From positions 1-57,320 of the IMG/VR virus record IMGVR_UViG_3300012165_000001: DNA of 57,320 nt; one strand, 5' to 3'. Shown piece after piece: positions 38,441 to 54,385 of the stretch. The notes beneath the pieces were generated by a model. The model made no database searches. It was not told where the DNA came from and saw nothing but the letters and a program-made list of their open reading frames with translations. Source of the DNA: a virus. The first letter of the stretch is position 1, and the number at the start of each line of letters is the position of its first letter. Made by a program: the position numbers and the translations under genes.

Positions 38441-38612
38441 TATCATCCACCAACTTAACCGCACAATAGGGACAATATTTTATTCCTCTCGCTCCCGGTT
38501 CAATGCAACCGTTGAAGTCAGTTCCCACCATCCATCCATTAAGCGCAGATTTTATCACATAATGATTTTCTGGTATTTGTTCGCATATATGCCTATCAAG
38601 TATATTCGCCAT
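38433..38612 (-). CDS. 59-aa zinc-ribbon protein inserted in the connector module, not in the ORF track
   Basis: MANILDRHICEQ...GIKYCPYCAVKLVDDNA; overlaps both neighbours. Confidence 0.4.
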   Translation of the reverse strand: MANILDRHICEQIPENHYVIKSALNGWMVGTDFNGCIEPGARGIKYCPYCAVKLVDDNA

Positions 38613-38613
38613 A

Positions 38614-39009
38614 TCATACCGCCTGTCTCGCTACCATAGTAGCTTCCTGTCGGCTTTGGATGACTATTGGAACGCCGATTGTCCCTTCATATTCTGCCAA
38701 GACGGCTCCACCTGTATCCAACTTACGCGCCTTAACTAAATCAGCATTTTGCAGGTCAACGCTTATAGCACAGTTGATCTTCAAGCTCACAATTATAGGC
38801 ATTGTGCCTGCCGTGACGGGATCAGGATTCGGAGTTTCGTTCGGGTCCAGATGACACTTTATGCCTGTATATAATGGCACATTTGGGTCGCTAACACTTA
38901 TTGAGCCATCCGGAAGTTCGATTTTTATTACCCTATAAATATCAATTTCGTCGCTATCCATATAATCGCCGATAATCCCGCCAATCTGCCCGAAGTCGAA
39001 CCCTGCCAT
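38614..39009 (-). CDS. Head-tail joining / head closure protein
   Basis: 131 aa; synteny after the gp6-like connector. Confidence 0.45.
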   Translation of the reverse strand: MAGFDFGQIGGIIGDYMDSDEIDIYRVIKIELPDGSISVSDPNVPLYTGIKCHLDPNETPNPDPVTAGTMPIIVSLKINCAISVDLQNADLVKARKLDTGGAVLAEYEGTIGVPIVIQSRQEATMVARQAV

Positions 39010-39013
39010 ACAC

Positions 39014-39364
39014 TCACCTTCTTTCCGTTATCCTGTACGGCAACCGAAAGCTAAAAATCTGCGCTTCTCGCTGCTTCAATCGATTCTCTGCCCACAGTTG
39101 TGCTTGTGATGTGTCAAAGTTTACGCTTCGTCCCGCCTCACTGACAGAGGTTGCCTTTCCTGTTGTGCCGCTTGTGTTAGACAGCTCATTATACATATCA
39201 AAAACCATCATGGCGGCCTCATTTTCAAGCTCTGCGGGCAATTCATGGCGGTTAGTGGCATTCAATATGCTTTGCGTTACAAGGCCGATATACAGCGTCA
39301 GAATAGCGTCCTTCGAATCGTCCGTGATGCCAAGTAAGGTTTTGACGGTATCAAGCAGATTCAT
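39014..39364 (-). CDS. gp6-like head-tail connector (DNA-packaging QLRG-type); start at 39364
   Basis: VKTLLGITDDSKDAILTLYIGLVTQSILN matches the family's N-terminal pattern. Confidence 0.6.
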   Translation of the reverse strand: MNLLDTVKTLLGITDDSKDAILTLYIGLVTQSILNATNRHELPAELENEAAMMVFDMYNELSNTSGTTGKATSVSEAGRSVNFDTSQAQLWAENRLKQREAQIFSFRLPYRITERR

Positions 39365-39368
39365 AGTA

Positions 39369-39656
39369 TCACGCTCCAAAATCCAAGCCCGGCAAGCCAG
39401 CACTCTTATAAAAGTCGCGCCTCATTTGCTCTTTCAAATCTTCAAGGTCAATCGTGATGGTTGTATTCGCGTCAATCCATACATCGCGGTAATCATGTTT
39501 TCGCAACACAGGCGCGGCTATGTCCTGCATAAGAGGTGCAGACATTTCAGCCATTAAGGGCGGTTCGTCAATATATGCACATGCAACCATCCGCTTTTCG
39601 TCGCAATCATCCTTGTGCTTGCATTTCTCGCATTTTTGGTATAGCTTACTCGGCAT
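39369..39656 (-). CDS. Hypothetical Cys-rich protein
   Basis: GGAGGGCAAAG RBS before the ATG at 39656. Confidence 0.4.
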   Translation of the reverse strand: MPSKLYQKCEKCKHKDDCDEKRMVACAYIDEPPLMAEMSAPLMQDIAAPVLRKHDYRDVWIDANTTITIDLEDLKEQMRRDFYKSAGLPGLDFGA

Positions 39657-39795
39657 CTTCTTTGCCCTCCGATTCATCCGGCGCAAATATACTTTCCTTC
39701 TTCGGCTTTTTTGCAGCCGTTTTTTCAGGCTCGGGTTTCTCTGCCCGTTCCTGCCGTTTGCTGATTATCTGTTGTCTTGAAAGTTCTGTCAGCAT
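39646..39795 (-). CDS. 49-aa Lys/Glu-rich small protein, not in the ORF track
   Basis: MLTELSRQQIISKRQERAEKPEPEKTAAKKPKKESIFAPDESEGKEDAE. Confidence 0.35.
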   Translation of the reverse strand: MLTELSRQQIISKRQERAEKPEPEKTAAKKPKKESIFAPDESEGKEDAE

Positions 39796-39800
39796 GTGTA

Positions 39801-40244
39801 TCACCGTCCTTTATCTCTGACTGGAACAATATCATAATCAATTATTTCCAATTCTGAGAAATCATTAGGATTAAATATTCCTACCCAAAAATTCCCGATA
39901 TATCGTTGCCTATTAATTACGCATTCGTTATAATGCCTAATCTCATTAATAATCTCCTTGTCGTATACGCCAAACTCGTCTTCATATAAACCGCTGTTCA
40001 GCTTATATTCAATGGATTGTCGGTAATTTTGAAATTTCAGCAAGTCTCCATCAACCGAAGCATGAGTGCCAATCGCAATCGGAACACAGACTATCAACCC
40101 AATCACGCCAGCTACCATTGCGGCAAAAGCGAAACCGTTGTCGTCAATAAAAATCCAACATATTATTCCGCCGATAAGAAGAATAACAAAAATCCACAAT
40201 AACATAATTATCGCTCCTTTTTTCATCCGCTCCAAATTAAGCAT
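39801..40244 (-). CDS. Two-TM membrane protein (moron) within the head/connector module; start may be the ATG at 40226
   Basis: LLWIFVILLIGGIICWIF and FAFAAMVAGVIGLIVCVPIAIG. The first 6 codons lie inside repeat copy a. Confidence 0.55.
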   Translation of the reverse strand: MLNLERMKKGAIIMLLWIFVILLIGGIICWIFIDDNGFAFAAMVAGVIGLIVCVPIAIGTHASVDGDLLKFQNYRQSIEYKLNSGLYEDEFGVYDKEIINEIRHYNECVINRQRYIGNFWVGIFNPNDFSELEIIDYDIVPVRDKGR

Positions 40245-40313
40245 AGAAAAAGGCGGGGGAGCGTAACCCGCCTACGGTTCATGATACCGTTCTATGCTGT
40301 TAAAGCCTATCGG
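40240..40313 (-). repeat. Structured intergenic repeat, copy a (outer stem, two hairpins, U-run)
   Basis: Plus strand: GCATAGAAAAAGGCGGGGGAGCGTAACCCGCCTACGGTTCATGATACCGTTCTATGCTGTTAAAGCCTATCGGC. Aligns with copies at 46213 and 48759. Confidence 0.8.
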
Positions 40314-40316
40314 CAT

Positions 40317-40586
40317 TTAACCTTGTTCGTCTGCCCGTTTCAATGCGTTTATCACTTGCCTGCGGGTTTTGTCCGTGGTGTCAATTTGCCTTTCAGCAGC
40401 AAGAGCGGCAAGGGCCTCATCGTCAAGCTCGTTGTAATCCGTGGATTCCTCCGAAACAGCAGGAGCAAGGGATTCCCCCTGCTCCGGTTCTGTCTCGCTT
40501 ATGGGCTTATATCCGCTTTTTCGGAATGCATTGATTTGGATTTCATCTACCACATCATAGGTTACTCCGTTTTTTGTGAGCTTCAT
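40317..40586 (-). CDS. Small head-associated protein with a Rho-N/HeH-like C-terminus
   Basis: DDEALAALAAERQIDTTDKTRRQVINALK. Confidence 0.4.
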   Translation of the reverse strand: MKLTKNGVTYDVVDEIQINAFRKSGYKPISETEPEQGESLAPAVSEESTDYNELDDEALAALAAERQIDTTDKTRRQVINALKRADEQG

Positions 40587-40597
40587 AACCTCACCCC

Positions 40598-41419
40598 TTA
40601 CGCGCTCTTATGGACATAGATTGCAGGCGCTTTATTTTGGAACACTCCGCAGTCGTGATAGATTCTACCCTCAATCAACCAGCCGTTAATACCAGGAGGA
40701 TTGTCGTGGTTTTTGTAATCGGCAATCTTCTGCGCCGCCCATGCCGCAATACGGTTTGTGAGCATAAATTCAACACCGGCGGGCATATAGCTCTTCGGCA
40801 CAAAGATAATCGGGATATTTTCAATCATGCCGACCTGCCCAGTAATAAGCATGTTCTGCGCCATATCGGACGCCTGAATAAATGCCGTGTCCAGGCGGAT
40901 GTAACGGTAGAATCCGGTGGAGATAAAGCCGAAAGTTCCAGCGGTGGGAGCCTTGTTGTCAAGCAGGGTTTCGACGCCCTTCAAAAAGCTCTCATATGCA
41001 TTGGCTTGCGTGATAGCGGCAGGTGTCGAAGTGTTGCCCGCATTAGCCGCAAGAATAGAAATCCTGTACTTGTCAACCTCGGGAATCACAACCTCGTCCA
41101 ACTGCCGACGAAGGGCGCGGCCGCTTTCTTTTACCATCATGGTATCAAGGTAATTCCGGCGGTCAATCGTGAATGTAAAGCTTCTGTCCTGCGTCAGGGT
41201 AAAGGATTGCACGGTGTCGCCCAGCTCATCAGGCGTACCATAACGGTTATCGCCCGCCATATTATAGTTGTTCATGGGTGCGGTGGGGATGCTGTAGACA
41301 TTAACGGTATTCACGCCGGTAAAGTCCAAATCCTGATTGAATGCGCTCTGCGTCACCGACGCTTTTGTAAACCTTTCGTCTACAATGCTTGCATATTTTT
41401 CTGCAAAGTTAATTGCCAT
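40598..41419 (-). CDS. Major capsid protein
   Basis: 273 aa immediately after the scaffold gene. The N-terminus MAINFAEKYASIVDERF is typical of this capsid family. Confidence 0.75.
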   Translation of the reverse strand: MAINFAEKYASIVDERFTKASVTQSAFNQDLDFTGVNTVNVYSIPTAPMNNYNMAGDNRYGTPDELGDTVQSFTLTQDRSFTFTIDRRNYLDTMMVKESGRALRRQLDEVVIPEVDKYRISILAANAGNTSTPAAITQANAYESFLKGVETLLDNKAPTAGTFGFISTGFYRYIRLDTAFIQASDMAQNMLITGQVGMIENIPIIFVPKSYMPAGVEFMLTNRIAAWAAQKIADYKNHDNPPGINGWLIEGRIYHDCGVFQNKAPAIYVHKSA

Positions 41420-41437
41420 AAATCATTCTCCTTTTTA

Positions 41438-42091
41438 TTAAGTTTCGTTGAATCCCGCCAAAAACGGGTCTGCTTCTTTGGTACTTGCGCCCTTGCTCCC
41501 ATCAGGCTGAAAGATTGATACGCCGACGGGGAGCTGCGCGGCGGGCGGCGCGTCTTGTGTTGCGGGCTGTGCCGGAATAGGAAAGTCAACTAAGGCAGCA
41601 TCCAGTGCCTTGCCAAAGTCGCCGTCCTCTGCCAAATAACTTTGAGCCAGCGCAATGTATTTGTCAGATTTATCTGCTGGGATTCCCTTGCCAACCGCCG
41701 AAAGCTGGCGCTGTAGTTTCAGGTTGTCGTTGGTCAGTCCGGTAATGGTGCCGTCCTTTTCGGCGGCAATCTGCTCCGGCGTCTGCTGTTTCGCTTTCCA
41801 TTCGGCTGTCATTCTGTTGATGGTTTCCGGGTCAAGGTTCTGCTGTTCCAGCATTGACCTAAAAACACCTGTCATTTTTCTTTCTGCGGCCTCACTGGCC
41901 TTTGTCTCGGCTTGACTGATAATGGAGTTAATGTCCACATTTACCGCCGTGGGCGTCGCTGCCGCCTGTACAGGCGTGGGTGCCGGTGCTGTCACCGTAG
42001 GGGTTGCCGGGGTAATGGATTCTGCCGGAGGCTGTGCCCCGCCATCTGAAAGCCTCATTGCCAAAGTTTTGATATTCATTTTCCTGCTCAT
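41438..42091 (-). CDS. Scaffolding protein
   Basis: Ala/Pro/Thr-rich N-terminus followed by helical Q/E/K-rich sequence; precedes the capsid gene. Confidence 0.65.
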   Translation of the reverse strand: MSRKMNIKTLAMRLSDGGAQPPAESITPATPTVTAPAPTPVQAAATPTAVNVDINSIISQAETKASEAAERKMTGVFRSMLEQQNLDPETINRMTAEWKAKQQTPEQIAAEKDGTITGLTNDNLKLQRQLSAVGKGIPADKSDKYIALAQSYLAEDGDFGKALDAALVDFPIPAQPATQDAPPAAQLPVGVSIFQPDGSKGASTKEADPFLAGFNET

Positions 42092-42145
42092 AACTTTCCT
42101 TTCCGCTCAAAGCGTCCGCTTAAGGCTCGTCAGCCGTGATTTTGA

Positions 42146-42188
42146 CAAAATAAAAAAGCCGCCCACTTCCAATAAGGAAATGAACGGC
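42146..42188 (-). terminator. Strong intrinsic terminator inside the late operon, after the radical-SAM cassette
   Basis: Minus strand: GCCGTTCATTTCC-ttatt-GGAAGTGGGCGGC (13 bp including G-U pairs), followed by TTTTTTATTTT. Confidence 0.7.
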
Positions 42189-42214
42189 TCTGACGGCTCT
42201 AGTTATTTGTTTTT

Positions 42215-42310
42215 TTATCCGCAATGCCCGCCTCCGGAATCGCCTCCGCAATGTCCGAATCCTGCCTGCTTGCTTCTCCGGTACATCCATTTGCAAAATT
42301 TAGTCCACAT
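42215..42310 (-). CDS. 31-codon Cys/Gly/His-rich micro-ORF, MWTKFCKWMYRRSKQAGFGHCGGDSGGGHCG (candidate precursor peptide), not in the ORF track
   Basis: ATG lies 3 nt after the radical-SAM stop. AAAGGAG RBS 7 nt upstream. Duplicated GHCG motif. Confidence 0.5.
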   Translation of the reverse strand: MWTKFCKWMYRRSKQAGFGHCGGDSGGGHCG

Positions 42311-42313
42311 AAT

Positions 42314-43198
42314 TTAACTCCTTTCTTTCATCCAACCGCCTTGTATTGTGCCGTCCTCATAGACAACGCCAAAATGACGATTATCAATAATTGGATTTCT
42401 TGTAACTGTTTTCGCAATCATCTTAATACCATCCGCAAATGAAGCTTTCAGGGATGATTCGCAAATAAAGCAACTTCGCTTTAGCAATACTGGCGTTTTG
42501 AGCTTCGCGCCCATTACGTTTTCAGTATCAATATATGTTTGACAGCCGCCGAAATATGGCGACGGCATTTTTATACCGAATATTTCTTCAAAAGATTTAT
42601 AATCTGCTGTTGAATGCTGAATTTCCGATAGCTTAAAGGAATTAAACCCAAATTTATCATAATGCAAAAGACATTTCGTTATCGTCTCGCGTGTGTCCAG
42701 CAAGCTTTTTACAATATTTAGATTTATCCTGATTTTTTCCTTCATCGGAATATTTGCATAAAATTCTTGGCGGTCATATTGAGATTTGTAGCCACGGATT
42801 TTATCGGCAATTTCCTCATTGTGGTGTTGCACAGACATATTGAAGCCATCTAGCAATCCCAAAACATCAGTAAATAGCGGGTTATCTTTGCAGGTTTTCG
42901 GAACGGATGATGTGCAATATACTTTCAATGCAGTTTCGCTTTTGATTGCCTTGATAAAATTCAGCATTTCTTCAATAAACAAGCAGGGTTCGCCGCCTAA
43001 AATCAAAACATCATCAAATCCGGTTTGTTTCTCAATTATGGCATTTGCCATTGCCCGCCAGTTTGGTTTTCCTCTGTTCACAGTTATGGAATCTCTGTCA
43101 ACACAAAATGCGCATTTATTATCACAAAACTTAGTGAAATGCACATCATATGAATTGTAAATGCCATCACAGCAATTACGGTTGAATGATTGTATCAT
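42314..43198 (-). CDS. Radical SAM enzyme of unassigned subfamily
   Basis: FCDNKCAFCVD CxxxCxxC motif, VLILGGEPCLF, and C-terminal Cys in GGC and CFIC. Confidence 0.75.
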   Translation of the reverse strand: MIQSFNRNCCDGIYNSYDVHFTKFCDNKCAFCVDRDSITVNRGKPNWRAMANAIIEKQTGFDDVLILGGEPCLFIEEMLNFIKAIKSETALKVYCTSSVPKTCKDNPLFTDVLGLLDGFNMSVQHHNEEIADKIRGYKSQYDRQEFYANIPMKEKIRINLNIVKSLLDTRETITKCLLHYDKFGFNSFKLSEIQHSTADYKSFEEIFGIKMPSPYFGGCQTYIDTENVMGAKLKTPVLLKRSCFICESSLKASFADGIKMIAKTVTRNPIIDNRHFGVVYEDGTIQGGWMKERS

Positions 43199-43421
43199 CT
43201 TCTCGGCTCTCCTTTTTCGGCTCTAATGGTGTTTCAATATGGATTGTCTTTGCGTCTGGCCATAGTTTACGGGGGTCAGTTTCGATTTTGATTTTTTCTT
43301 TACAGCCTCGACACAACACATAGACATTGCCCTGCTCGTCACGCTCCGCCACAATCTTTGCGCGGTCGTGGCAATTACATCTTATCTGTTCGATAATATC
43401 ACCACCTTTTTTGAAGTCCAT
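43176..43421 (-). CDS. Small zinc-binding protein
   Basis: CNCH...CRGC pairs; overlaps the radical-SAM start by 23 nt. Confidence 0.5.
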   Translation of the reverse strand: MDFKKGGDIIEQIRCNCHDRAKIVAERDEQGNVYVLCRGCKEKIKIETDPRKLWPDAKTIHIETPLEPKKESREDDTIIQP

Positions 43422-43433
43422 CAGGACGCAGGG

Positions 43434-43760
43434 TTATATTGCTTCAATTTCTTTGAACGCCGCCAACATCTTAGGAAATTGCATAGCAATCCAATGTACA
43501 CAAAATTCATTATCTAAAACCGTATTCAATGCGCCGGATTCAGTGATGAATGCATGTACAAGCTCATGCCTCTTAATGAGTTTTTTCCTTTCCGTCTTTT
43601 CATTTTCGTTGGCATGCTTATCATTCGCAAACGGTTCTTTTTCCACCAAGATATATTTATCGTAATTGCTACAAAAGCCATCTGCATTTTCAAGTATTCC
43701 GTTTTCCTTTTGCGTAGTTTCCATGATTTCATATTCTGCGCCAAGAATAGTGACTTTCAT
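43434..43760 (-). CDS. Small HExxH metallopeptidase-like protein
   Basis: KRHELVHAFITESG contains HELVH; GGAGGA RBS. Confidence 0.5.
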   Translation of the reverse strand: MKVTILGAEYEIMETTQKENGILENADGFCSNYDKYILVEKEPFANDKHANENEKTERKKLIKRHELVHAFITESGALNTVLDNEFCVHWIAMQFPKMLAAFKEIEAI

Positions 43761-43805
43761 TTATATCCTCCACAATGTATTCACGCATAGCGCCGCGCCG
43801 CGAGA

Positions 43806-44228
43806 TTAGGTTGCGCCCTTACTCTGCAAATAAGCCTTGAAATCTCTGTTGAAGCGCTCCGGAAGTTGCCGTTGGATACGGTCAATAGGAATCGTCATGA
43901 TGAAATATCCATCCCGCCAAGAGCCGTTGACATTTCTTGCTCCGAACTCAATAAACGAGCTGTAATCCTGGGGATTGCCCAGAGTAACCTCAAGATCATT
44001 GCCCACTCTCCTAACATCACTGACATACCACGATAATAGCATGGCTCTAGTGTCAACCGTTTTGCCCGTTGCCGCATAAACTTCGTTGTGACGTTCTATT
44101 ATTTTGTCAAGTGCTCGGTTGGCCTCTCTCAAGAAAAATTTCTCAATCCAACTTGGGAATTCTTCAAAGGCTTTAATATTGTTTTTTAGAAATTGTTCTA
44201 ACTGTGAAAAATCGGCGTTTTTGCTCAA
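43806..44228 (-). CDS. Head-associated protein (possibly HK97 gp10-like)
   Basis: Coupled (ATGA) to the gp7-like gene; 140 aa. Confidence 0.4.
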   Translation of the reverse strand: MSKNADFSQLEQFLKNNIKAFEEFPSWIEKFFLREANRALDKIIERHNEVYAATGKTVDTRAMLLSWYVSDVRRVGNDLEVTLGNPQDYSSFIEFGARNVNGSWRDGYFIMTIPIDRIQRQLPERFNRDFKAYLQSKGAT

Positions 44229-45232
44229 GGTACGTACCTCACTTTTCCATTATCCAACGGGGTCAGCCCTTTTCTCCATCGACTAAAGCTTAAGTCTGCC
44301 GGGATTTCGATTACCTTGCCGTTTTCGTCCGTTGCAAGTCTAACCGCTCTTGGATATAGGGCATCAATTTCATCTTTTGGCAGATACGGCCTTGTACCCG
44401 TACGGCAGTTTGGGTGAAATGGGTTTGCGGTAACTCCTGGTTGATATTCGCTTACTTTGAATATTTTGCCGTGCATCTCTTCGCAAATCTCTGATGTTTT
44501 GTGGTCTAAAACTGCATCAATCTTGTATTCTTCGATTCCAGCCGCTATGTAGCCTTTAAGCCTACCGTCACCAGCTATCTTGTTGAACTCCGTGCGGGCT
44601 AACCGGACGCCGTTGTATTCGCTTGTCTGCATAGCGTCGGATATGTTTTTCCCGATAATTCTGGGGCTTTGCCCAAGCGCCATACCTTGCGGAATTATCC
44701 TTTCCAGATTTAAGGTAAGCCGGTCTTTGTTCGCCCAAATCCTGTCTGAATAACTCTCCCCCAGCCATTTAGTCGAAACTGCGCTCTCTATCATTTTTGT
44801 ATTTAAGGATGAAAAACTGCTTGCCATACCAAACGCTTGATTGAAATCAAACATTGTGCGTAGATAGCTTTCCTCGTAGACGGTTCCAAGCCCTATCCTG
44901 AATGCGTCCTGCTCCTGCGCATACAATTTCTCAATCTGAAATTGCACGTCCGCTTGTAATGCTTCCAAGCGGCTCACGGCTGATTTTAGGGATAGTTGCC
45001 GGTGTAGCTTTTGGCGATAGGCGGGGTCGAATGCGTAGCCGGTAGCCTTGATTGCCTCGTAATATTCCTGCGTCTGTTCAAGATAGGATTTCAGCTCGGA
45101 TTTATTCAGGGCTTTCCGGGCATCTTCGAGGGATACGCCGACATCTCTTGCGTAGCGGCCATAGAACACTTCCAGTTCACACTGTATGGCCTTTTGCGCT
45201 TCTCTGTAGAGTTTTGAGAGATCGGCGTTCAT
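44225..45232 (-). CDS. Head morphogenesis protein, SPP1 gp7 family
   Basis: C-terminal region with TANPFHPNCRTGTRPY, typical of the family. Confidence 0.75.
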   Translation of the reverse strand: MNADLSKLYREAQKAIQCELEVFYGRYARDVGVSLEDARKALNKSELKSYLEQTQEYYEAIKATGYAFDPAYRQKLHRQLSLKSAVSRLEALQADVQFQIEKLYAQEQDAFRIGLGTVYEESYLRTMFDFNQAFGMASSFSSLNTKMIESAVSTKWLGESYSDRIWANKDRLTLNLERIIPQGMALGQSPRIIGKNISDAMQTSEYNGVRLARTEFNKIAGDGRLKGYIAAGIEEYKIDAVLDHKTSEICEEMHGKIFKVSEYQPGVTANPFHPNCRTGTRPYLPKDEIDALYPRAVRLATDENGKVIEIPADLSFSRWRKGLTPLDNGKVRYVP

Positions 45233-45360
45233 TTCTTCGGCGGTTTTTTCGGCGGCGAGAATGACTCTCTCGGCACGTTCAGACCAGTAACGCTCTTGCG
45301 CTTCCTTTGGTTTGTTAAGTATAGAAATGGAATGTCACCACCTTTAGCGGGCTACAACCG

Positions 45361-45384
45361 GGAGGGATGGGGGGAGGGATGGGG
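45361..45384. repeat. Perfect tandem 12-mer GGAGGGATGGGG x2, forming a G-tract run on the plus strand
   Basis: Read at 45361-45372 and 45373-45384. Followed by the hairpin GGGGG-cataatcg-CCCCC. Confidence 0.85.
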
Positions 45385-45400
45385 GCATAATCGCCCCCCG

Positions 45401-46186
45401 TTAATCATCCATTCCCAAAACCCATTGCAATGCTTTCCGTTGCACTATCGTATATGGGTCATTTCCACACAATTCCTTTATTCGCCTTTCAATCTCCCGG
45501 CGCGTCCTCATTTTCGGCGCTGCCTTATTCTCTGGAGAAGCAGCGGCGCTTTTCATTGTATGAACCGTGGGCTTTTCGCCGCGCTGTTTTATATCCTCAT
45601 AGCGTCTGACCTGTTCTTCGCGAGAATGACCGGACATTTGCAAGGCGGCTGTCGCGGAAACCTCACCATTCCCAACGGCCTCTTTTATTTGGGTCGGTAA
45701 TTCATCCACTGCTAACCACTGATCTACAGCCTGCCGGGTAACGCCAAAGACAACGGCGATCTGCTGAGGCGCATAACCCATATTAAGTAACTTGCGGGCT
45801 TTTTCGCCCTTGTTGATAACACTATCTTCGCGCCGAATTTCATTTTCTGATATTAGAACGCCGAACAAATCAACGTCAGAACCGCCGCGGACTATTGCCG
45901 GTATCAGTAGAGGCGGCTTGCCCTCTGCCGCAAAGCGCCGGTTTACCTCCAACGCGGCCTTTGTGCGTCCGCGTCCTGCGACAACCTCTATTGCGTCTCC
46001 GTTCTTGCGAACAATGATAGGTTCCAATACCCCGTGCATGGCGATATTGGCGATCATGCTTTCGCTTGGTTCATTCTCGACACGTGGGTCATACAGTGGA
46101 TGATTCTTGTCTGTCACCAATGTTAGGCGCTCCGGCTCTAACTTGAAAATGTCGCCCCTCTTTGCATCAATAGCACTCTTTCCCAT
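45401..46186 (-). CDS. ParB/Spo0J-like N-terminal domain protein with an HTH (start at 46186)
   Basis: HGVLEPIIVRKNGDAIEVVAGRGRTKAA (ParB box) and GYAPQQIAVVFGVTRQAVDQW HTH; AGGAGG RBS. Confidence 0.75.
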   Translation of the reverse strand: MGKSAIDAKRGDIFKLEPERLTLVTDKNHPLYDPRVENEPSESMIANIAMHGVLEPIIVRKNGDAIEVVAGRGRTKAALEVNRRFAAEGKPPLLIPAIVRGGSDVDLFGVLISENEIRREDSVINKGEKARKLLNMGYAPQQIAVVFGVTRQAVDQWLAVDELPTQIKEAVGNGEVSATAALQMSGHSREEQVRRYEDIKQRGEKPTVHTMKSAAASPENKAAPKMRTRREIERRIKELCGNDPYTIVQRKALQWVLGMDD

Positions 46187-46212
46187 GATAAACCTCCTAC
46201 CCATATATTTGA

Positions 46213-46286
46213 GCATGAAAAGGGAGAGGCGGGTTAAACCTCTCCGTCGGCTGTACAACCGTTTCATGCTGTAAAAGCCTATTGGC
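46213..46286 (-). repeat. Structured intergenic repeat, copy b
   Basis: Plus strand: GCATGAAAAGGGAGAGGCGGGTTAAACCTCTCCGTCGGCTGTACAACCGTTTCATGCTGTAAAAGCCTATTGGC. Confidence 0.8.
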
Positions 46287-47817
46287 TATTTACCGTTTCT
46301 TCCCGCTCCCGCGCCAACCGCTCGTTTTCTTCTCTCAGCCTTGCAAGTTCGCGTTCTGTGTTCATGTCGGATAGGGCTGCTTCTTCCTCTTGCTTCCGGC
46401 GCTGTTGTTCGATCTCGTGGGATTCGACGGCGGGATTATAATTGTCAATAGTTTCCTGGCTTATTCCGGTAGCCATAAGCTTGACGGTATCTTCGATATA
46501 CTGCGATTCATTGATAAGCATATCTCTGTTGAGAGTAGGGATTAAATTATATTTCGCCCATTGCTCGGACGTTCCAATGCCGCGAAAATTAAACCAAATA
46601 TCGACAAAGTATTTAAGCTGCTGTGTCATAAACACCTCAAATTCAGGTTCAAGCCCGTCCGTATAGGTGTCTAACCCCTGATAGCGGAATTCAAGCGCAA
46701 CGCCGGATGTATCGCTTGTTGTATCGCTATCTGGTGACATAATCATCTGTGCGGCTTTTCGTATGTTCTTTTCAAGGATTTTAAGCGCTGTTTCCATTGC
46801 GACAATTTCAGGACTGGCTTGCACATAATACGCTTTACCGCCCGTCCCGATTGCTACAATGCGGGAATTTTGCATAATGGCGCGTTGCTTTATCAGATCG
46901 CCCAATTCCGGCGAATACCCTTCAAGGGCGAGAACGGGGTCAAGCGCGTCCGCTATTGCGTCAACCATTTTGCTCTGGAGCGCATCGTAGCTGTCTACAA
47001 GCTGCCGAATTGGATTGAGTATAGGAAGTTCTTCTTCGTTTCCTTTGAAGAAAATAAACGGCACCCTGCTCCATTCAAGCGCCCCGAATACAGGATGTTC
47101 CATGTGACCTGTCGGCTGCGGATAATCGGGGTCTGGCTCTAGTGTGCCGTTCCCCTTATCAATATATCGTTCAACAATTTCCTTATCCCAATATTCGACC
47201 TTGGTGATTTCCTCGCGGTTGCCGTCCGCGTCGTACTGGATAACCTTGTAGTCTCGAACGATTGCGTCAAGGATAGTATGCTCCTTATCGGCCCATGCTG
47301 GATATATCTGCTCCGAATCCACATGCTCAATGATTAAATCGCCAGCTTGGTCGATTTTAACAAATGCCCAACCAATACCCTTGTTGATTGCACCTTGCTT
47401 TCCGATACGCTTTATAGTCTTCCTGCGGGCAGGGGAGAGATATTTTGACCATTCATCAAGATATATTGCGGCCTGCGGGTCTTCCGTACCGTCCGGTAAA
47501 GGGCTTTCCACGCTTATAGAAAATGGTTTACCCATTGCATAATTGCTTTTTTCGGTGACGCTTTCACGAACGAACGCAGACGGAATCTTAGCGTTTGACA
47601 GTGTAGAGTTCCCGCCATATTCGGGCAAGTCGCGGCGCTTTTTCAATATGGTTGTGTTGCGGACCATGAAGTATTCTTCAGCATCAAGCATATCCTTGAT
47701 AATATGCGCCCTATCGCCTGTACGCCATTCTTTAAGCGTAATGCGGGTAAAGTCCTTATTGCTACGCCCTCTGCCCATAAATTCAATTTTAGTGCCGATC
47801 AATTCGGTTTCGGTCAA
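46279..47817 (-). CDS. Portal protein (SPP1 gp6-like); TTG start
   Basis: 512 aa. AAAGGAG lies 7 nt before the TTG. Acidic coiled C-terminus. Positioned between the terminase region and the head genes. Confidence 0.85.
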   Translation of the reverse strand: MTETELIGTKIEFMGRGRSNKDFTRITLKEWRTGDRAHIIKDMLDAEEYFMVRNTTILKKRRDLPEYGGNSTLSNAKIPSAFVRESVTEKSNYAMGKPFSISVESPLPDGTEDPQAAIYLDEWSKYLSPARRKTIKRIGKQGAINKGIGWAFVKIDQAGDLIIEHVDSEQIYPAWADKEHTILDAIVRDYKVIQYDADGNREEITKVEYWDKEIVERYIDKGNGTLEPDPDYPQPTGHMEHPVFGALEWSRVPFIFFKGNEEELPILNPIRQLVDSYDALQSKMVDAIADALDPVLALEGYSPELGDLIKQRAIMQNSRIVAIGTGGKAYYVQASPEIVAMETALKILEKNIRKAAQMIMSPDSDTTSDTSGVALEFRYQGLDTYTDGLEPEFEVFMTQQLKYFVDIWFNFRGIGTSEQWAKYNLIPTLNRDMLINESQYIEDTVKLMATGISQETIDNYNPAVESHEIEQQRRKQEEEAALSDMNTERELARLREENERLAREREETVNSQ

Positions 47818-47851
47818 GGTATCACTCCTTTCTTGTAGGGTGAGCGGGGGA

Positions 47852-48175
47852 TTAAATCAAACAAACTGCAATCTGTAATAGGTGAAAAGTCTGGTCAATA
47901 TTAAAGCTGGCCTTATCCGACAACCCCATCTTTTTGTAATATCCTCGGCACTTCCATCCGTCCATGAGCAAATGTCCAACAAAAAGCTGTATCAATTTCC
48001 ACCATGCAAATATGCCGAAATATTGAAGTCCGAAAGCTATGCCCATAGCCCATATGAAACAATGGACAAATAAGGCATAATTGCTTTTCTGTTTCCATTC
48101 GGCCAAGAAAAAGTTTTGCAATGGATAATCGCATATATAGTTAATCATGACCAGAACTAAAAATGTCCACAACAT
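47852..48175 (-). CDS. Multi-TM membrane protein (DUF3307-like)
   Basis: Four hydrophobic segments; ICDYPLQ and GHLLMD motifs. Confidence 0.5.
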   Translation of the reverse strand: MLWTFLVLVMINYICDYPLQNFFLAEWKQKSNYALFVHCFIWAMGIAFGLQYFGIFAWWKLIQLFVGHLLMDGWKCRGYYKKMGLSDKASFNIDQTFHLLQIAVCLI

Positions 48176-48342
48176 CCAAAGTTATCCTCCTGTCCGAACA
48201 TTGCCGGCCCGCCAAAGTATGGATTAGGCCGCCATGCCCATGTTGTTAATGTATGCATGAGCGCAAGCTGATAAAGGCAAGATTCCAATTCTTCACGTTC
48301 TTGCTGCTGCTTTGCCTTTTTCTTTTTAATCCGCCTGTTCAT
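48157..48342 (-). CDS. Hypothetical small protein
   Basis: 61-aa ORF with a basic N-terminus. Confidence 0.4.
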   Translation of the reverse strand: MNRRIKKKKAKQQQEREELESCLYQLALMHTLTTWAWRPNPYFGGPAMFGQEDNFGCCGHF

Positions 48343-48396
48343 TCTCTCCCGCTCCCTTCCCGCATTAAAAATCCCGCTGGTGAGCGGGGTGGGTTA

Positions 48397-48723
48397 TTAT
48401 TTCAATTTGTTTTCATCAAACGGAGGATAGGTGATTTTCGCCTTGCATCTTTGCGTTTTACCGTTTTTGTAGTAGGCTTTCCATGAATCACCCTGTTCCT
48501 CGCCCTCTCCGCACAATTCAAAGATAACGTCAGGGTGCAGGAGAGACAGGCGCTTCATATCGTTGTCATGCTCATACCATTTACACGATTGCCCCATATC
48601 TCCATATTCATCAACGGCATATCTCAAATATTCAAATTCGCCGTCAGGAATATCGGCAAGAATTTCAGAAATGTCTTTATAACTGTTATGCGTACCAAGG
48701 CTATAGCTAGTCAAATATCCCAT
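48397..48723 (-). CDS. Hypothetical protein (start at 48723)
   Basis: AAAGGAG RBS. Confidence 0.5.
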   Translation of the reverse strand: MGYLTSYSLGTHNSYKDISEILADIPDGEFEYLRYAVDEYGDMGQSCKWYEHDNDMKRLSLLHPDVIFELCGEGEEQGDSWKAYYKNGKTQRCKAKITYPPFDENKLK

Positions 48724-48758
48724 TTTATACACTCCTTTTAATATCGCTCCAATTTTAC

Positions 48759-48836
48759 GCATAGAAAAGAGCCGGGGGAGCGTTCCCGGCTCACGGCCAT
48801 GCACAACCGTCTATGCTATATGAAAAGCCTGTGGGC
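48759..48836 (-). repeat. Structured intergenic repeat, copy c
   Basis: Plus strand: GCATAGAAAAGAGCCGGGGGAGCGTTCCCGGCTCACGGCCATGCACAACCGTCTATGCTATATGAAAAGCCTGTGGGC. Confidence 0.8.
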
Positions 48837-48864
48837 TAATCATTTGGATGTAGCCTAATGTAAC

Positions 48865-49026
48865 TTATCGCGCCCAAGTTACTTTTAAGATATACTTGCC
48901 ATTGTCTCCATATTGGATTTCAGCGGCTGAACCGCACTTAGGACATTTTACCCAATCAATCCTAATGCTGATATCGTTAACGTCATCAACGCATTTCATT
49001 TGCGTATGACATGTAAGGCATTCCAT
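48865..49026 (-). CDS. 53-aa zinc-ribbon protein, not in the ORF track
   Basis: MECLTCHTQMKC...VKCPKCGSAAE. Confidence 0.4.
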   Translation of the reverse strand: MECLTCHTQMKCVDDVNDISIRIDWVKCPKCGSAAEIQYGDNGKYILKVTWAR

Positions 49027-49027
49027 C

Positions 49028-49222
49028 CTAACCCCTCCGCAATCCGCACAACGGGCGTTGTTCGATTACTTCTCCGTTTTTCATGACTGCACCACAATTA
49101 GGGCAAACGGGCTCCAACCCTCCGCAGTTGTGTTTAAAGCATTGATTGCACACATAGCCCTTTATCCACTTGGGCAAATTATTAATGTAATATTCCTCTC
49201 CATCGAAATTCATAAAATCCAC
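49028..49222 (-). CDS. Zinc-ribbon protein
   Basis: CNQCFKHNCGG..CPNCG. Confidence 0.45.
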   Translation of the reverse strand: MDFMNFDGEEYYINNLPKWIKGYVCNQCFKHNCGGLEPVCPNCGAVMKNGEVIEQRPLCGLRRG

Positions 49223-52068: not shown

Positions 52069-52638
52069 CTATGCGCCTTTTGCCTCCTGCTTCATTTCGG
52101 CTGAAATAGCCGCCAATAAAACATCTGTTGGAATTGGGATATTCTCTGTGTTATAGTAATGGTTATTCGCAAGCTTGGTGTCATACTGCTTCAACCATTG
52201 CCGTCCATTATGTTTCCATGCCATTTGCAAAAGCAATGTAGGCAGGAGATAGATTTTACCGGATCCCAATACTGCATAAACTATGTAATCGCATTGAGAA
52301 TAGAACAGCCAGCCTAATTTCTTCCGCTCTTTATTCTTCCATAACTCAAGCAATATATCGCCATAGTCTTTGCGCCGTTTCTTCTCATCTACAGTTACAG
52401 TCCGACCATCTGGGAAGTGTACAACTTTATCAACTCCCCTTAGCTGCAATTCTGGATCTGCCTCATAAGAAATAGTTTCAATTCGTTCGGCTGTAGGAAA
52501 AGCCTTTAAGTAAAAAGCGTTTAATTGCTCATCTTCTCCCGCTTCAAACGAGTATTGGAGATCGGCGTGAAAGTCATTATATTTGATTCCCCCACACCTC
52601 CCATTTATCACTATGTTTTTGGCGGGCAAACATTTCAA
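52069..52638 (-). CDS. PD-(D/E)xK-like nuclease-fold candidate; start uncertain
   Basis: GVDKVVHFPDGRTVTVDEKKRR fits D...(D/E)xK. Overlaps the methylase 3' end. Confidence 0.4.
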   Translation of the reverse strand: MKCLPAKNIVINGRCGGIKYNDFHADLQYSFEAGEDEQLNAFYLKAFPTAERIETISYEADPELQLRGVDKVVHFPDGRTVTVDEKKRRKDYGDILLELWKNKERKKLGWLFYSQCDYIVYAVLGSGKIYLLPTLLLQMAWKHNGRQWLKQYDTKLANNHYYNTENIPIPTDVLLAAISAEMKQEAKGA

Positions 52639-53755
52639 GATAGGTTTCGTCCGGAAACATTCTTTCGATCATGGAATAATAATAATCTGGCTTTTGGCTG
52701 TGCCTCCCTCTCGCTTCCTTGTAAACAGAAGAAAAGCGATTTTCGGGCAATGGTGCAGCATGTTTACCCTTAACGCCCAAAAGCAACAATTCATGCTGTC
52801 CTCTAAACCAATATCCCATACCGTTCTTTTCTTTATCCCACGAATGGCAAGTGCGATATAAAAAGCCCCATGCCTCCATAACCTCAAGAGCCTCTGTCAG
52901 TTTTGGAGCTGTAGCCCATAAAAAAAGCACCGCATTGTCTTCACACGGCACTTGGATATTTTTTATGTCCTCCAATGTCATAGTTGGGTATTGATTTTCA
53001 ATGGCGCGGCTTTCGGTTTCGGAAAATTCATAACGCCATGGAGGATCTGCGTAGATTATATCGTATTTTCCGGTGGTTTGTTTCAGAGGCGCAATTTTAA
53101 TTTCTTCGCGTCTGATAAGCTGCGCAGCCGTTTTTATGGTAGCAGCTTGCCCGGTGGTTAACTTATCAACAATAGCCTTTTGCTGCTGCGGCTTCATTCT
53201 GGCAAGAGTAAGGGCATCTGTTTTTGGCATATCGTTTTTTATAACAGCCGCTTTTGCCTCCGGTGTAAGCTTTTTCGCAATCTGTATTTCCTGCTCCACC
53301 GTCCTGCGGGACACGCCTATTTTTTCGGCGGTATCCTCTGCAAAGGTTGGCGAAATAATTTCGCTGACCTCTTTAAATTGGTTTCCACGAAATGCGCCCC
53401 CTTTTGAAGTTGGCTTGGTCTCTGGATGCAACTCCTCATAAATTTCCTTACGCCGTGAAAATTGTTCTCCGCGAATAGTAAAATGTAATTCATTTCGTAT
53501 CAGGTTTTCGTCTATCTCGGCAAGTTCAGCATGAAGCCCGGAAAGATCTGTTGTGGTGGCCTCTATCTCTGCGCGTCCCAACAACTTAAACGCTTCTATT
53601 CTGTGTGCCCCGGCAATCAAGAATCTATCAATATCCAGTGTAATAGGATTAATAAGCCCGATTTCTTTTATGCTGTCTGCAAGATCCTTTACCTTCGATA
53701 TGTCGATAGCACGGCGATTGCTTCTTGTTTGAATGTCTGCGATTTTAACCAACAT
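52577..53755 (-). CDS. ParB-like N-terminal domain fused to an MT-A70-type N6-adenine DNA methyltransferase
   Basis: GLINPITLDIDRFLIAGAHRIEA (ParB box) and IIYADPPWRYEF (DPPW catalytic motif). Confidence 0.8.
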   Translation of the reverse strand: MLVKIADIQTRSNRRAIDISKVKDLADSIKEIGLINPITLDIDRFLIAGAHRIEAFKLLGRAEIEATTTDLSGLHAELAEIDENLIRNELHFTIRGEQFSRRKEIYEELHPETKPTSKGGAFRGNQFKEVSEIISPTFAEDTAEKIGVSRRTVEQEIQIAKKLTPEAKAAVIKNDMPKTDALTLARMKPQQQKAIVDKLTTGQAATIKTAAQLIRREEIKIAPLKQTTGKYDIIYADPPWRYEFSETESRAIENQYPTMTLEDIKNIQVPCEDNAVLFLWATAPKLTEALEVMEAWGFLYRTCHSWDKEKNGMGYWFRGQHELLLLGVKGKHAAPLPENRFSSVYKEARGRHSQKPDYYYSMIERMFPDETYLEMFARQKHSDKWEVWGNQI

Positions 53756-53854
53756 GATATTACCGCCTTTCCGTAAGCCTTAAAAGTTAATCCGGGGAAG
53801 GCGGATAAGGCTTTCCGTTTTTCGAGTGCGCTACTCTATCCCCGAATTTTGGGA

Positions 53855-53885
53855 TATAAAAACGCCTCATCCGAAGATAAAGCGT
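53855..53885 (-). terminator. Intrinsic terminator with a UUCG tetraloop
   Basis: Minus strand: CGCTTTATC-TTCG-GATGAGGCG followed by TTTTTAT. Confidence 0.6.
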
Positions 53886-53923
53886 GATTATTCGTTTTGT
53901 TCGGCCTGCGGAGGCCGGGTTAT

Positions 53924-54100
53924 TCACGGCAATTCGTTTTCTAGTAAATTGATAAAATAATCTGCACTTTTTGACAACTTGGTATATTCTTCTTTTCCCA
54001 AGACATAATAAACTGCACTCATAAGCGCTTTGATTTCCCCAATCGTTCTATGCTCTTGAATTGATAATATAGCATATGGCTCCTTATCGCTCGCAAACAT
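53924..54100 (-). CDS. 58-aa hypothetical protein, not in the ORF track
   Basis: AAGGAG RBS; MFASDKEPYAILSIQEHRTIGEIKALMSAVYYVLGKEEY... Confidence 0.45.
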   Translation of the reverse strand: MFASDKEPYAILSIQEHRTIGEIKALMSAVYYVLGKEEYTKLSKSADYFINLLENELP

Positions 54101-54384: not shown

Positions 54385-54385
54385 A

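Follow-up and report, generated by a model that had tools for sequence, protein, structure and literature searches.

Three copies of an intergenic repeat lie on the minus strand in the late operon of a stretch of viral DNA of 57,320 nucleotides (the window), which amounts to three copies in 57 kb, each ahead of a gene. Each copy, together with the tail that follows it, forms a leader of ~105-120 nt. The leaders, their parts and the genes after them are as follows, with H1 and H2 being the two hairpins of a three-way junction and CM a covariance model:

40203..40315, minus strand: whole leader of copy a, from the fold and a CM match at 40237-40315 (96.7 bits)
40304..40315, minus strand: copy a mini-hairpin, UGCC-GAUA-GGCU
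40240..40298, minus strand: copy a three-way junction (fold, pair counts), with outer stem 40291-40298 paired with 40240-40247, H1 40274-40290, H2 40252-40272 and U-run 40247-40251
39801-40205, minus strand: membrane protein gene after copy a, ATG 40205-40203
46184..46287, minus strand: whole leader of copy b, from the fold and a CM match at 46209-46287 (86.6 bits)
46276..46287, minus strand: copy b mini-hairpin, AGCC-AAUA-GGCU
46212..46270, minus strand: copy b three-way junction (fold, pair counts), with outer stem 46262-46270 paired with 46212-46220, H1 46248-46261 and H2 46223-46245
45401-46186, minus strand: ParB-like gene (261 aa) after copy b, ATG 46186-46184
48721..48837, minus strand: whole leader of copy c, from the fold and a CM match at 48755-48837 (75.3 bits)
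48826..48837, minus strand: copy c mini-hairpin, AGCC-CACA-GGCU
48759..48816, minus strand: copy c three-way junction (fold, pair counts), with outer stem 48810-48816 paired with 48759-48765, H1 48794-48809 and H2 48769-48792
48397-48723, minus strand: phrog_6306 gene after copy c, ATG 48723-48721

The order of parts is the same in each copy: a mini-hairpin, a U-rich linker and then the outer stem, AGCAUAGA/UCUAUGCU or variants, which encloses H1 and the GC-rich H2. The mini-hairpin pairs as AGCC-N4-GGCU in copies b and c and as just GCC/GGC in copy a. The apex of H1 is a 4-6-nt palindrome in every copy. H2 has an unusually large loop of 7-12 nt, and the U-run 3' of it, just 4-5 nt long and followed by C, contributes to the 3' half of the outer stem. 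The junction strands are 0, 0-2 and 2-5 (U-rich) nt in length, giving a three-way junction nearly without junction nucleotides. An earlier note on this DNA had placed the three copies within 1-4 nt of the CM matches, all on the minus strand; all the parts that it listed are found in the copies, and the H2 stem sequences that it quoted are exact. Its extent of ~75 nt describes the structured part and not the end point, since the element runs 25-40 nt further, to the start codon.

The repeats are a real, conserved family of folded sense-strand RNA elements that is absent from Rfam. Minimum free energy folds of copies a, b and c reproduce the mini-hairpin and the three-way junction exactly, with z-scores of -4.3, -5.3 and -3.6 (0/200 shuffles fold equally well), which are nested folding scores that leave the loop-site pseudoknot described below outside them. 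A CM search, proposed in the earlier note, finds just the three copies above noise in the window (next best 9.9 bits, E ~2) and 16 further distinct copies in related metagenomic phage contigs. The 19 distinct copies come from only ~12 related contigs and therefore represent few independent events; among them, pairing holds in 90.8% of cells, and both sides have changed in 15 of the 23 pairs. The covariation score of 0.415 compares with 0.183 for shuffles, none of 500 of which reached it, and slid partners score no higher than 0.096. The variation of H2 between copies, previously taken as a sign of selection on RNA structure, is borne out as genuine compensatory change, with all four helices significant across the 19 copies. 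In 14 of these the sense strand gives the more stable fold, and 32 of the 458 pairs are G.U. No Rfam family matches at the three copies, at the gathering threshold or at E<=10.

GenBank phages gave no match to a megablast of the region or to a blastn of two whole leaders, and a pattern restricted to the a, b and AAG subtypes returned chance matches only from 185,579 representative genomes. Loose DNA patterns run on viral contigs also gave mostly chance matches, the real ones among the matches listed being L022, L049, L073, L141 and L226. A tighter pattern gave real matches only in the viral contigs, and in metagenome contigs 10 of its 13 loci were confirmed by the CM, the exceptions being L252, L254 and L256. 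No element was found in the portal relatives L232-L234 (67-82% identity) or at the distant ParB-like loci L263-L268, and the best match in the portal relative L235 reached just 10.9 bits (E = 0.62). Two further stretches of the window that had been candidate copies, 52821-52875 and 54043-54054, proved to be coding sequence.

Copy a begins 1 nt after the stop codon of an upstream 89-aa gene, and the portal stop codon UAG (46281-46279) sits within the mini-hairpin of copy b. Copy c begins 27 nt after the stop codon of a Zn-ribbon gene. As the earlier note stated, an accessory-looking gene follows each copy (annotated as membrane protein, ParB-like and phrog_6306 hypothetical), and the genes after family elements are always accessory, including those for ParB-like proteins, methyltransferases, HNH, Ant and the membrane protein. 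Several small accessory genes in the terminase-to-portal interval of the window are without such a leader.

The element moves with or between accessory cassettes in the late operon. A leader of the b type lies ahead of ParB in the window, L237, L073 and L262 and ahead of HNH in L141, and an AAG-type leader lies ahead of an N6-methyltransferase in L073 and Ant in L141. L241 has the AAG outer stem with its own loop/site class, and the gene downstream encodes a C5-methyltransferase. The unit of copy b and ParB follows the portal gene in the window and is found upstream of the terminase genes in L073, and a phage 99.3% identical is without exactly this cassette. Between the window and L237 the flanks share 77.6% identity, and the element itself is conserved at 97%. 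The suggestion of a miniature mobile element thus holds as far as travelling with cassettes and preceding differing genes is concerned, but the L269/L270 cassette junctions, the single pair inspected, show no target-site duplication, and the annotated neighbouring genes include no integrase or transposase.

The tails between the junction and the start codon carry two tandem 4-9-nt sequences complementary to the H2 loop. Site 1 lies 7-12 nt past the junction, and site 2 lies 1-8 nt ahead of the start codon, over the Shine-Dalgarno (SD) sequence and spacer. The loops and sites of the three copies are:

40258..40266, minus strand: copy a H2 loop, UUACGCUCC, complementary to GGAGCG
40228..40233, minus strand: copy a tail site 1, GGAGCG, 7 nt past the junction
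40212..40217, minus strand: copy a tail site 2, GGAGCG, which is the SD region, 6 nt ahead of the ATG
46230..46238, minus strand: copy b H2 loop, UUUAACCCG
46191..46203, minus strand: copy b tail sites, with UGGGU at 46199-46203, the SD AGGAGG at 46193-46198 and GGUU at 46191-46194
48777..48784, minus strand: copy c H2 loop, AACGCUCC
48745..48750, minus strand: copy c tail site 1, GGAGCG
48730..48735, minus strand: copy c tail site 2, GGAGUG, in the SD region, with one G.U in the loop pairing

Both sites are present in every leader type, and neither is consistently the stronger. The sequence of the H2 loop is conserved while that of the H2 stem varies. The complementarity is class specific, with loop and sites co-varying by class in at least six orthogonal classes; for example, CGCUCC is found with GGAGCG, CCAGUCC with GGACUGG, AUUAACCCC with GGGGUUAAU, UACUCC with GGAGUA and UCAAUC with GAUUGA. 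Changes within a class also keep the pairing, as in UUUAACC/GGUUAA of L237 compared with UAUAACC/GGUUAU of L141, and C-to-U changes in the loops of L049 and L238 retain G.U pairing with the sites. Loops paired with their own tails sum to a duplex energy of -60.3 kcal/mol, compared with -45.7 for the best derangement, and the true assignment ranks first among 720 permutations. Shuffled tails do as well as the real ones in 0.1-0.7% of cases for classes A, C, E and F; taken by itself, the b class is not significant (15-21%). Copy b has the weakest loop match in the family, at 4-5 bp, and its orthologs in L237 and L141 have 6 bp, with the compensatory U/A change.

A known RNA of similar design, int-alpA, occurs once in the window, in the same prophage as the three copies:

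53753..53846, minus strand: int-alpA RNA and tail, the RNA itself being 53778-53846 (Rfam RF02996, 53.8 bits, gathering 35.8)
53806-53813: int-alpA H2 loop, AAGCCUUA, pairing 8/8 with UAAGGCUU at 53775-53782
53763-53770: int-alpA second site, AAAGGCGG, which is the SD of the ParB-N/MT-A70 gene 52577-53755

The loop-to-tail complementarity of int-alpA is a feature derived in this analysis, and a literature search found no functional characterisation of this RNA (RF02996). Among 14 int-alpA loci checked, 13 were confirmed as int-alpA. The summed energy of its loops with their own tails is -128.5, compared with -96.1 +/- 7.1 for permutations (0/20000), and two sites are present in 13 of 17 loop classes, with at least 17 orthogonal loop/site classes in all.

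int-alpA is an architectural relative and not a member of the new family. Both have a three-way junction in which an outer stem, ~8 bp in int-alpA, surrounds two hairpins, both lie just upstream of the ribosome-binding site (RBS) of a prophage or satellite gene, and in both a pair of tandem tail sites, of which the second lies at the SD, is complementary to the loop of the second hairpin and covaries with it by class. However, the RF02996 model misses the three copies even at E<=10, and the new model misses the int-alpA site. int-alpA has the conserved junction strands CUAG, CGAAAA and CUG, sequences that are absent from the new family, and its U-run, where present, comes after the outer stem, whereas that of the new family lies within it. 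The new family has an additional mini-hairpin upstream, at the stop codon. int-alpA is found upstream of integrase/alpA-type genes of prophages and satellites, and the new family in packaging/head modules and late structural operons.

The repeats appear to be portable cis-regulatory leaders that control translation of the cassette gene by pairing of the H2 loop with its RBS, possibly together with transcription attenuation; this reading is given a probability of roughly 0.55. As part of a portable accessory-gene cassette, the leader would be read in the sense direction within the late polycistronic mRNA. According to three-way-junction rules, H2 should fold back along the outer stem, and in this predicted arrangement its 7-12-nt loop would come to lie beside the 3' tail. 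Pairing of the loop with site 2 would mask the RBS, and pairing with site 1 would compete with this. Translation of the cassette gene would thereby be kept low and insulated from that of the heavily translated structural gene upstream. Judged from these sequence relationships, the leaders probably limit the output of the following gene. The cassette genes themselves encode nucleases and methyltransferases, besides an antirepressor and a membrane protein. H2 and the run of four or five U may also attenuate transcription or protect the 3' end of the upstream message. The earlier proposal of modules that gate moron expression survives in spirit, with the strongest evidence favouring translation as the step that would be gated, by way of pairing between the H2 loop and the site where ribosomes bind downstream.

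The late operons of phages hold many inserted accessory genes, such as those for nucleases, methyltransferases and antirepressors, that have to be expressed without disturbing the stoichiometry of structural proteins. The family offers a concrete, testable RNA device for striking this balance. The portability of the leader also provides an example of regulatory RNA modules that accompany gene cassettes in mosaic phage evolution.

It is unlikely that the main product is a trans-acting small RNA, freed by termination at the H2 U-run or by processing. The H2 loop of such an RNA would bind the tandem sites on transcripts that read through, whether made by the same phage or by a co-infecting one, and switch the downstream gene off or on. 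The c4 RNA of P1 and P7, the CI RNA of P4 and the IsrK RNA of Gifsy-1 act in this manner. This would suit the resemblance of H2 and its U-run to a terminator, the retention of the U-run in the AAG type even where it is unpaired, the many orthogonal classes in both families and the antirepressor gene that is one of the targets (L141), and P4 CI RNA and IsrK are precedents (PMC4825925). However, no promoter is visible, so that the RNA would need to be excised from the late transcript, and an RNA ending at the U-run would lose the 3' half of the covarying outer stem, leaving that stem without a role. Many int-alpA members are without a U-run, and kinetics favour pairing in cis.

c4 RNAs have heteroimmunity classes, which the many orthogonal loop/site classes recall. 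As is proposed for the new leaders, c4, P4 CI and IsrK are small structured RNAs upstream of, and co-transcribed with, the gene that they control, and their loops pair with repeated targets at or near its RBS (PMC4825925, PMC8201110 for P4 CI and IsrK). P4 CI RNA has two repeated targets, seqA and seqC, and IsrK occurs both as a terminated small RNA and as read-through mRNA (PMC4825925). The targets of these RNAs are often antirepressors. However, c4, CI and IsrK have no sequence or CM similarity to the new family, and Rfam C4 is unmatched at E<=10 over 37500-49100. c4, CI and IsrK also belong to immunity regions, have promoters of their own and are shown to act in trans and, in P4, to cause termination. 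The new family lies in a late operon, with no promoter seen, for which action in cis would be the simpler reading.

A GC-rich hairpin followed by a U-run could mean simple termination. It is rather improbable, however, that the repeats are ordinary intrinsic terminators, attenuators or 3'-end stabilisers between cistrons, copied recently from phage to phage and with an incidental match between loop and tail. A terminator scan flags copies b and c but not copy a, which has a 9-nt loop, and other terminators lie in the same late operon at 42191-42155, 48388-48373 and 37815-37760, two of which also have a U-run and an AUGCU tail. H2 and the U-run are thus terminator-like, as the earlier note had it, but the loops are large and the U-run is short for a terminator module. 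The covarying outer stem, H1 and the mini-hairpin would be superfluous for termination, as would loops of this size, and the conservation of the loop sequence over that of the stem does not fit this role. The class-specific covariation of loop and sites, which recurs in int-alpA, is very unlikely to be incidental.

A moron of a temperate phage is a gene that has entered a late operon together with a promoter and a terminator of its own. The new cassettes resemble morons as accessory genes between conserved head genes that vary in presence among near-identical phages, but the conserved element here is an upstream RNA structure rather than a promoter, and a downstream terminator is seen for cassette c alone (48388-48373). 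Another comparison is the PeSL, a mobile regulatory cassette of T4-type phages (PMC2839356, PMC4122927). PeSLs are likewise intergenic repeats of ~100 nt that finish with the SD and start codon belonging to a non-essential gene, include a GC-rich stem-loop and mark points of gene gain, loss and replacement. They are defined by a strong sigma-70 early promoter, of which none is found in the three copies, and are without a three-way junction or loop-to-RBS complementarity.

There is little to recommend PeSL-type terminator-promoter cassettes that would supply each inserted gene with a promoter of its own and whose main use would be to provide patches of homology for shuffling by recombination. 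This would account for ~100 conserved nt ending, as in PeSLs (PMC2839356), in SD and start codon, for one kind of leader ahead of differing genes and for a chimeric copy (L237:4325-4426) that stops right after H1, and a related phage (L232) has a canonical promoter-driven moron at the same insertion junction. Against it, a promoter scan calls no sigma-70-like site in any of the three copies, and the L269/L270 cassette swap is not bounded by two elements. The former reading of TATGCT as a -10 box is disfavoured because changes in the box follow pairing with the 5' half of the outer stem: -11A or -7T is missing in 7 of 19 aligned copies, the variants being TGTGCT, TATGCG, TATGTG, CATGTC and TATGCA. 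TTTACA as -35 and TAGGCU as the -10 of a small RNA were ruled out, like TATGCT, by variability and spacing.

An element that works as DNA, whether a structure-specific (attC-like) recombination site, a set of protein-binding palindromes or a MITE-like unit with the outer stem as terminal inverted repeats, is very improbable. The nested inverted repeats, the palindromic H1 apex and the link to cassette gain and loss would be expected of it. Against it stand the G.U pairs, the greater stability of the sense strand and the C-to-U loop changes that retain G.U pairing with the sites; position and orientation are also fixed between stop codon and RBS, with the loop complementarity aimed at the SD region. 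The lack of a target-site duplication and of an integrase or transposase, as described above, also counts against it. The reading of the repeats as tRNA-like, Y-shaped signals that punctuate the late mRNA for RNase P, RNase Z or RNase III finds as little favour: the Y-shaped fold between cistrons suits it and the P1 c4 RNA precursor is an RNase P substrate, but no tRNA, tRNA-like, RNase P-type or other Rfam signal is found at gathering or E<=10, a 3' CCA-like tail is absent and the stems are shorter than RNase III needs (the ARAGORN scan covered 53500-55000 only and has no bearing on the three copies).

For translational control by the leader itself, as favoured here, simpler parallels are known. 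The free-standing homing-endonuclease genes mobE and I-TevI of T-even phages have RBS-sequestering RNA structures, and in repZ of IncI-alpha/IncB plasmids a hairpin loop pairs with sequence beside the RBS to form a pseudoknot that activates translation. In the former an upstream RNA structure likewise controls translation of an inserted, potentially harmful gene, and the latter shares the pairing of a hairpin loop with RBS-adjacent sequence. These systems are single simple hairpins or one pseudoknot, without a three-way junction, tandem sites or a repeated portable family.

The new repeats and int-alpA may, more tentatively and at somewhat less than even odds, be two branches of a wider, hitherto unrecognised class of "self-targeting" leader RNAs, in which a three-way junction brings the loop of one hairpin to face a tandem pair of complementary sites in the ribosome-binding region of the following gene. 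If so, the many orthogonal loop/site specificities would serve horizontally acquired genes of prophages and satellites as portable governors of translation or as immunity-like switches. The shared logic offers a specific, testable mechanism for int-alpA, a widespread motif, and builds a conceptual bridge from both families to the classical immunity RNAs c4 and CI. As for the phages that carry the new family, the sequence of the terminase points to Firmicutes-type myophages.

Three stretches of the minus strand carry one structured repeat, and a covariance model built from them scores them as follows:

40237-40315, minus strand: copy a, covariance-model match, 96.7 bits
46209-46287, minus strand: copy b, covariance-model match, 86.6 bits
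48755-48837, minus strand: copy c, covariance-model match, 75.3 bits

The window holds exactly three copies, since nothing else in its 57 kb exceeds 9.9 bits with the filters off. As the earlier note had it, the stretches align over their full length, and the parts it listed make up the MFE fold of every copy: a mini-hairpin of 3-4 bp, a U-rich linker, a three-way junction closed by an outer stem of 8-9 bp (AGCAUAGA/UCUAUGCU and variants), hairpin 1 (H1, stem ACGG...CCGU in all three), a GC-rich hairpin 2 (H2), and a U4-5 run that partly serves as the 3' strand of the outer stem. Folding z-scores are -4.3, -5.3 and -3.6, and none of 200 shuffles folds as well. At its apex, H1 (40274-40290, 46248-46261 and 48794-48809, minus strand, and all related copies) has a palindrome of 4-6 nt whatever the element type (UCAUGA, UGUACA, UGCA/AUGCAU, UUGCAA, GCGC, UAAUUA), which formation of the hairpin does not require; the other two hairpins' loops are not palindromic, save that TTAA/TATA tetramers occur incidentally in three H2 loop regions. 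Candidate explanations for the apex palindrome are a kissing-dimer loop, a site acting at the DNA level and quasi-palindrome correction.

DNA-pattern scans followed by the covariance model, a model search proposed earlier, extended the three window copies by 16 more distinct ones in related phage contigs. Nearly all come from one JGI metagenome series, with one other JGI sample and ENA and Logan assemblies; the latter two carry the window's own phage (L269, 100% identical). Across the 19 distinct sequences 90.8% of cells are paired, both sides change at 15 of 23 pairs, and the covariation score, 0.415, exceeds that of shuffles (0.183; 0/500 as high) and of slid partners (at most 0.096). On these grounds the covariation that had been taken to argue for selection on RNA structure is statistically supported. 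Compensatory variants are found in the outer stem (AGCAUAGA/UCUAUGCU, AGCAUGAA/UUCAUGCU, AGCAUAAG/CUUAUGCU, UGCAU.../...AUGCA), the mini-hairpin (AGCC/GGCU, AUCC/GGAU, UGUC/GACA) and H1 (ACGG/CCGU, GCGA/UCGU), and there are at least eight different H2 stems. The sense strand is the better folder in 14 of 19 copies, and G.U pairs make up 7% of pairs. At gathering thresholds Rfam 15 finds only a tRNA and one int-alpA RNA (53778-53846) in the window, leaving the copies unmatched, and BLAST of the region and leaders against 50,697 GenBank phage records gave no match. The copies make up a real family of structured phage leader RNAs, with statistical support, that is absent from Rfam 15. A pattern restricted to the a, b and AAG subtypes gave chance matches only in 185,579 genomes, one per species, and as far as that pattern and current databases can tell, the family is narrow.

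The copies stay similar beyond the junction up to the start codon, so the element is longer than first described. The tail, from junction to start codon, has two tandem motifs that are the reverse complement of the element's own H2 loop in every element type:

H2 loops and their tail sites, by type or related contig
Types a and c: loop (U)ACGCUCC; tail GGAGCG twice (second site of c, GGAGUG)
AAG type: loop CCAGUCC; tail GGGGCUGG or GGACUGA, then GGACUGG(U)
L241: loop AUUAACCCC; tail GGGGUUAAU and GGGGUUAA
L236: loop UACUCC; tail GGAGUA and GGAG
L022: loop UCAAUC; tail GAUUG and GAUUGA
Type b: loop UUUAACCCG; tail (U)GGGU and GGUU(AA)

Site 1 lies 7-12 nt 3' of the junction, and site 2 lies 1-8 nt 5' of the start codon, covering the Shine-Dalgarno sequence (SD) and spacer. 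The match is class specific: six independent loop classes paired with their own tails sum to -60.3 kcal/mol, the best of 265 derangements reaches -45.7 kcal/mol, and the true assignment tops all 720 permutations. Shuffled tails equal the real match in 0.1-0.7% of trials for classes A, C, E and F and in 15-21% for the b class; window copy b, with 4-5 bp, is the weakest case. Pairing is kept through change within a class (loop UUUAACC with site GGUUAA in L237, UAUAACC with GGUUAU in L141), and C-to-U changes in the loops of L049 and L238 leave G.U pairs. The complementarity ends at the loop, with no extension into the H2 stem, as would fit a pseudoknot or a kissing contact that leaves H2 intact. 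One leader in L270 (5060-5125) lacks the three-way junction, yet its SD region is tandemly duplicated (AAAGGTTGATTATG / AAAGGTGATAATCATATG), suggesting that duplicated SD-like motifs may be common in this phage group.

On the evidence, the elements are best read as portable leader RNAs that regulate in cis. From junction strands of 0, 0-2 and 2-5 nt and the published classification of three-way junctions, we infer that H1 should stack on the outer stem and H2 should fold back along it, which would place the H2 loop beside the tail. Pairing of the loop with site 2 would occlude the SD, and pairing with site 1 would compete with this. Together these pairings would hold translation of the nucleases, methyltransferases and an antirepressor, encoded amid highly expressed structural genes, at a set and probably low rate. 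A further role of H2 and the U-run may be to attenuate transcription or to stabilise the message upstream. Other terminators occur within the late operon, suggesting that late transcription tolerates or overrides them. Of the proposal that the copies gate moron expression, leader-type control of cassette genes is the part best supported, and termination is a conjectural addition. The chief competing explanation is a trans-acting small RNA, for which c4, CI and IsrK-type RNAs are the comparison (PMC4825925; PMC8201110); the many orthogonal specificity classes would favour such a reading.

The gene context accords with the claim that copies precede accessory-looking genes. The window holds a myovirus-type prophage with all late genes on the minus strand. 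In order they are TerS and TerL, small genes (one of them HNH) and a Zn-ribbon gene, followed by copy c, phrog_6306 with small genes, and the SPP1-type portal gene. Copy b and a ParB-like gene follow, then MuF, more genes, and genes for a radical-SAM protein, a scaffold-like protein, the major head protein and a head protein of 89 aa. Next are copy a, a membrane-protein gene, connector and tail genes, and then the sheath gene. In related contigs the gene 3' of the element is accessory every time:

Genes 3' of the element in related contigs
ParB-like: L073, L237, L262
N6-methyltransferase: L073
C5-methyltransferase: L241
HNH endonuclease: L141, L236, L022
Antirepressor Ant: L141
Membrane protein: L049, L226, L238-L240
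Hypotheticals: related contigs

In 13 of 22 tabulated copies the start of the element coincides with the upstream stop codon or lies no more than 1 nt from it, and the portal stop codon, UAG, sits within the mini-hairpin. A small terminator-like hairpin at 48373-48388 (minus strand; CCCGCUCACCAGCGGG and AUUUUUAAUGC) lies directly 3' of phrog_6306, so cassette c has a structured leader on its upstream side and a plain hairpin on its downstream side.

The leader occurs before different genes. The b-type leader and tail precede ParB in four phages and HNH in L141, and the AAG-type leader stands before the N6-methyltransferase in L073 and before Ant in L141; the AAG outer stem is also present in L241, together with another H2 loop, other tail sites and another H1. 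The unit of b and ParB (89% identical) follows the portal gene in the window and lies upstream of TerS and TerL in L073. Between the window and L237, element b has 97% identity where the flanking genes have 77.6%. In L237 (4325-4426, minus strand) a c-type copy is truncated: the mini-hairpin, the 5' outer strand and H1 remain, and exactly after H1 the copy breaks and joins another gene's SD and ATG, which shows a recombination breakpoint inside the element. L270 and L269 are 99.1-99.3% identical on both sides of the cassette site, where a 960-nt block of 13 nt, element b, the ParB-like gene and about 60 nt (L269 5120-6079; window 46300-45341) is replaced in L270 (4540-6080) by three unrelated genes without an element. 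The replacement spans exactly the last portal codons to the MuF start, and the window's version has a MuF ORF call shorter by 36 codons. At the same junction L232, whose portal is 82% identical, has a classical moron: the portal stop is followed (2665-2725) by a canonical TTGACA-17-TGnTATAAT promoter and a small Zn-ribbon gene, without a structured leader.

Such exchange agrees with part of the suggestion of a miniature mobile element that carried in the flanking genes. Against a DNA-level or MITE-like element are the G.U evidence and the constant location from stop codon to RBS, and no target duplication is present at the single junction pair examined. An overlapping terminator-promoter unit, with TATGCT/CATGCT as a -10 box, is disfavoured: 7 of 19 aligned copies lose -11A or -7T, the changes tracking RNA pairing, and a promoter scan called no promoter-like site in the copies. 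The PeSL cassettes of T4-type phages have a similar role, with the key difference that they contain a promoter (PMC2839356, PMC4122927). Processing signals resembling a Y-shaped tRNA are unsupported, as Rfam gives no match at the copies either at gathering thresholds or when 37500-49100 is scanned permissively (E<=10).

The pairing of a loop with tandem sites near the RBS connects the new family with the uncharacterised int-alpA motif (RF02996) and, by analogy, with the c4 and CI immunity RNAs. The gene downstream of the window's int-alpA (53753-53846, minus strand; RNA 53778-53846; 53.8 bits) encodes a ParB-N/MT-A70 methyltransferase. The second-hairpin loop of this RNA, AAGCCUUA, is a perfect 8/8 complement of UAAGGCUU, which its tail carries directly after the junction, and the SD of that gene is a second, related site, AAAGGCGG. 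Viral contigs yielded 55 int-alpA-pattern loci, and 13 of the 14 checked with Rfam reach the gathering threshold. For 17 distinct loop classes the own-tail duplex energy is -128.5, against -96.1 +/- 7.1 under random reassignment (0/20,000). Two sites are present in 13 of the 17, one directly after the junction and the other about 12-20 nt further, shortly 5' of the start codon. The families share this distinctive higher-order architecture, but the new one is not a member of int-alpA, since the Rfam model gives no match and the conserved junction strands CUAG, CGAAAA and CUG are missing; the U-run and mini-hairpin are also arranged differently.

Other parts of the window carry further signals. 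The tail-sheath gene leader (37728-37970, minus strand) combines a sigma-70-like promoter, TTGTAA-16-TGgTATAAT, with a leader of about 100 nt and a tandem pair of terminator hairpins. Both hairpins are followed by a U-run and AUGCU(CA) tail as in the elements but lack the 5' AGCAU partner; this may be a late-tail regulatory region in its own right. Within the head module, a strong terminator-like hairpin (42155-42191, minus strand; 16 pairs and a long U-tract) lies between the radical-SAM/4Fe-4S gene (42314-43198), itself unusual in a head-morphogenesis cluster, and the scaffold-like gene, implying that late transcription reads through or antiterminates there. The prophage also contains a tRNA-Gly(UCC) gene (54311-54384, minus strand; tRNA-Gly by ARAGORN), followed by a tRNA T-arm-like sequence, GGTTCGATTCCGG.
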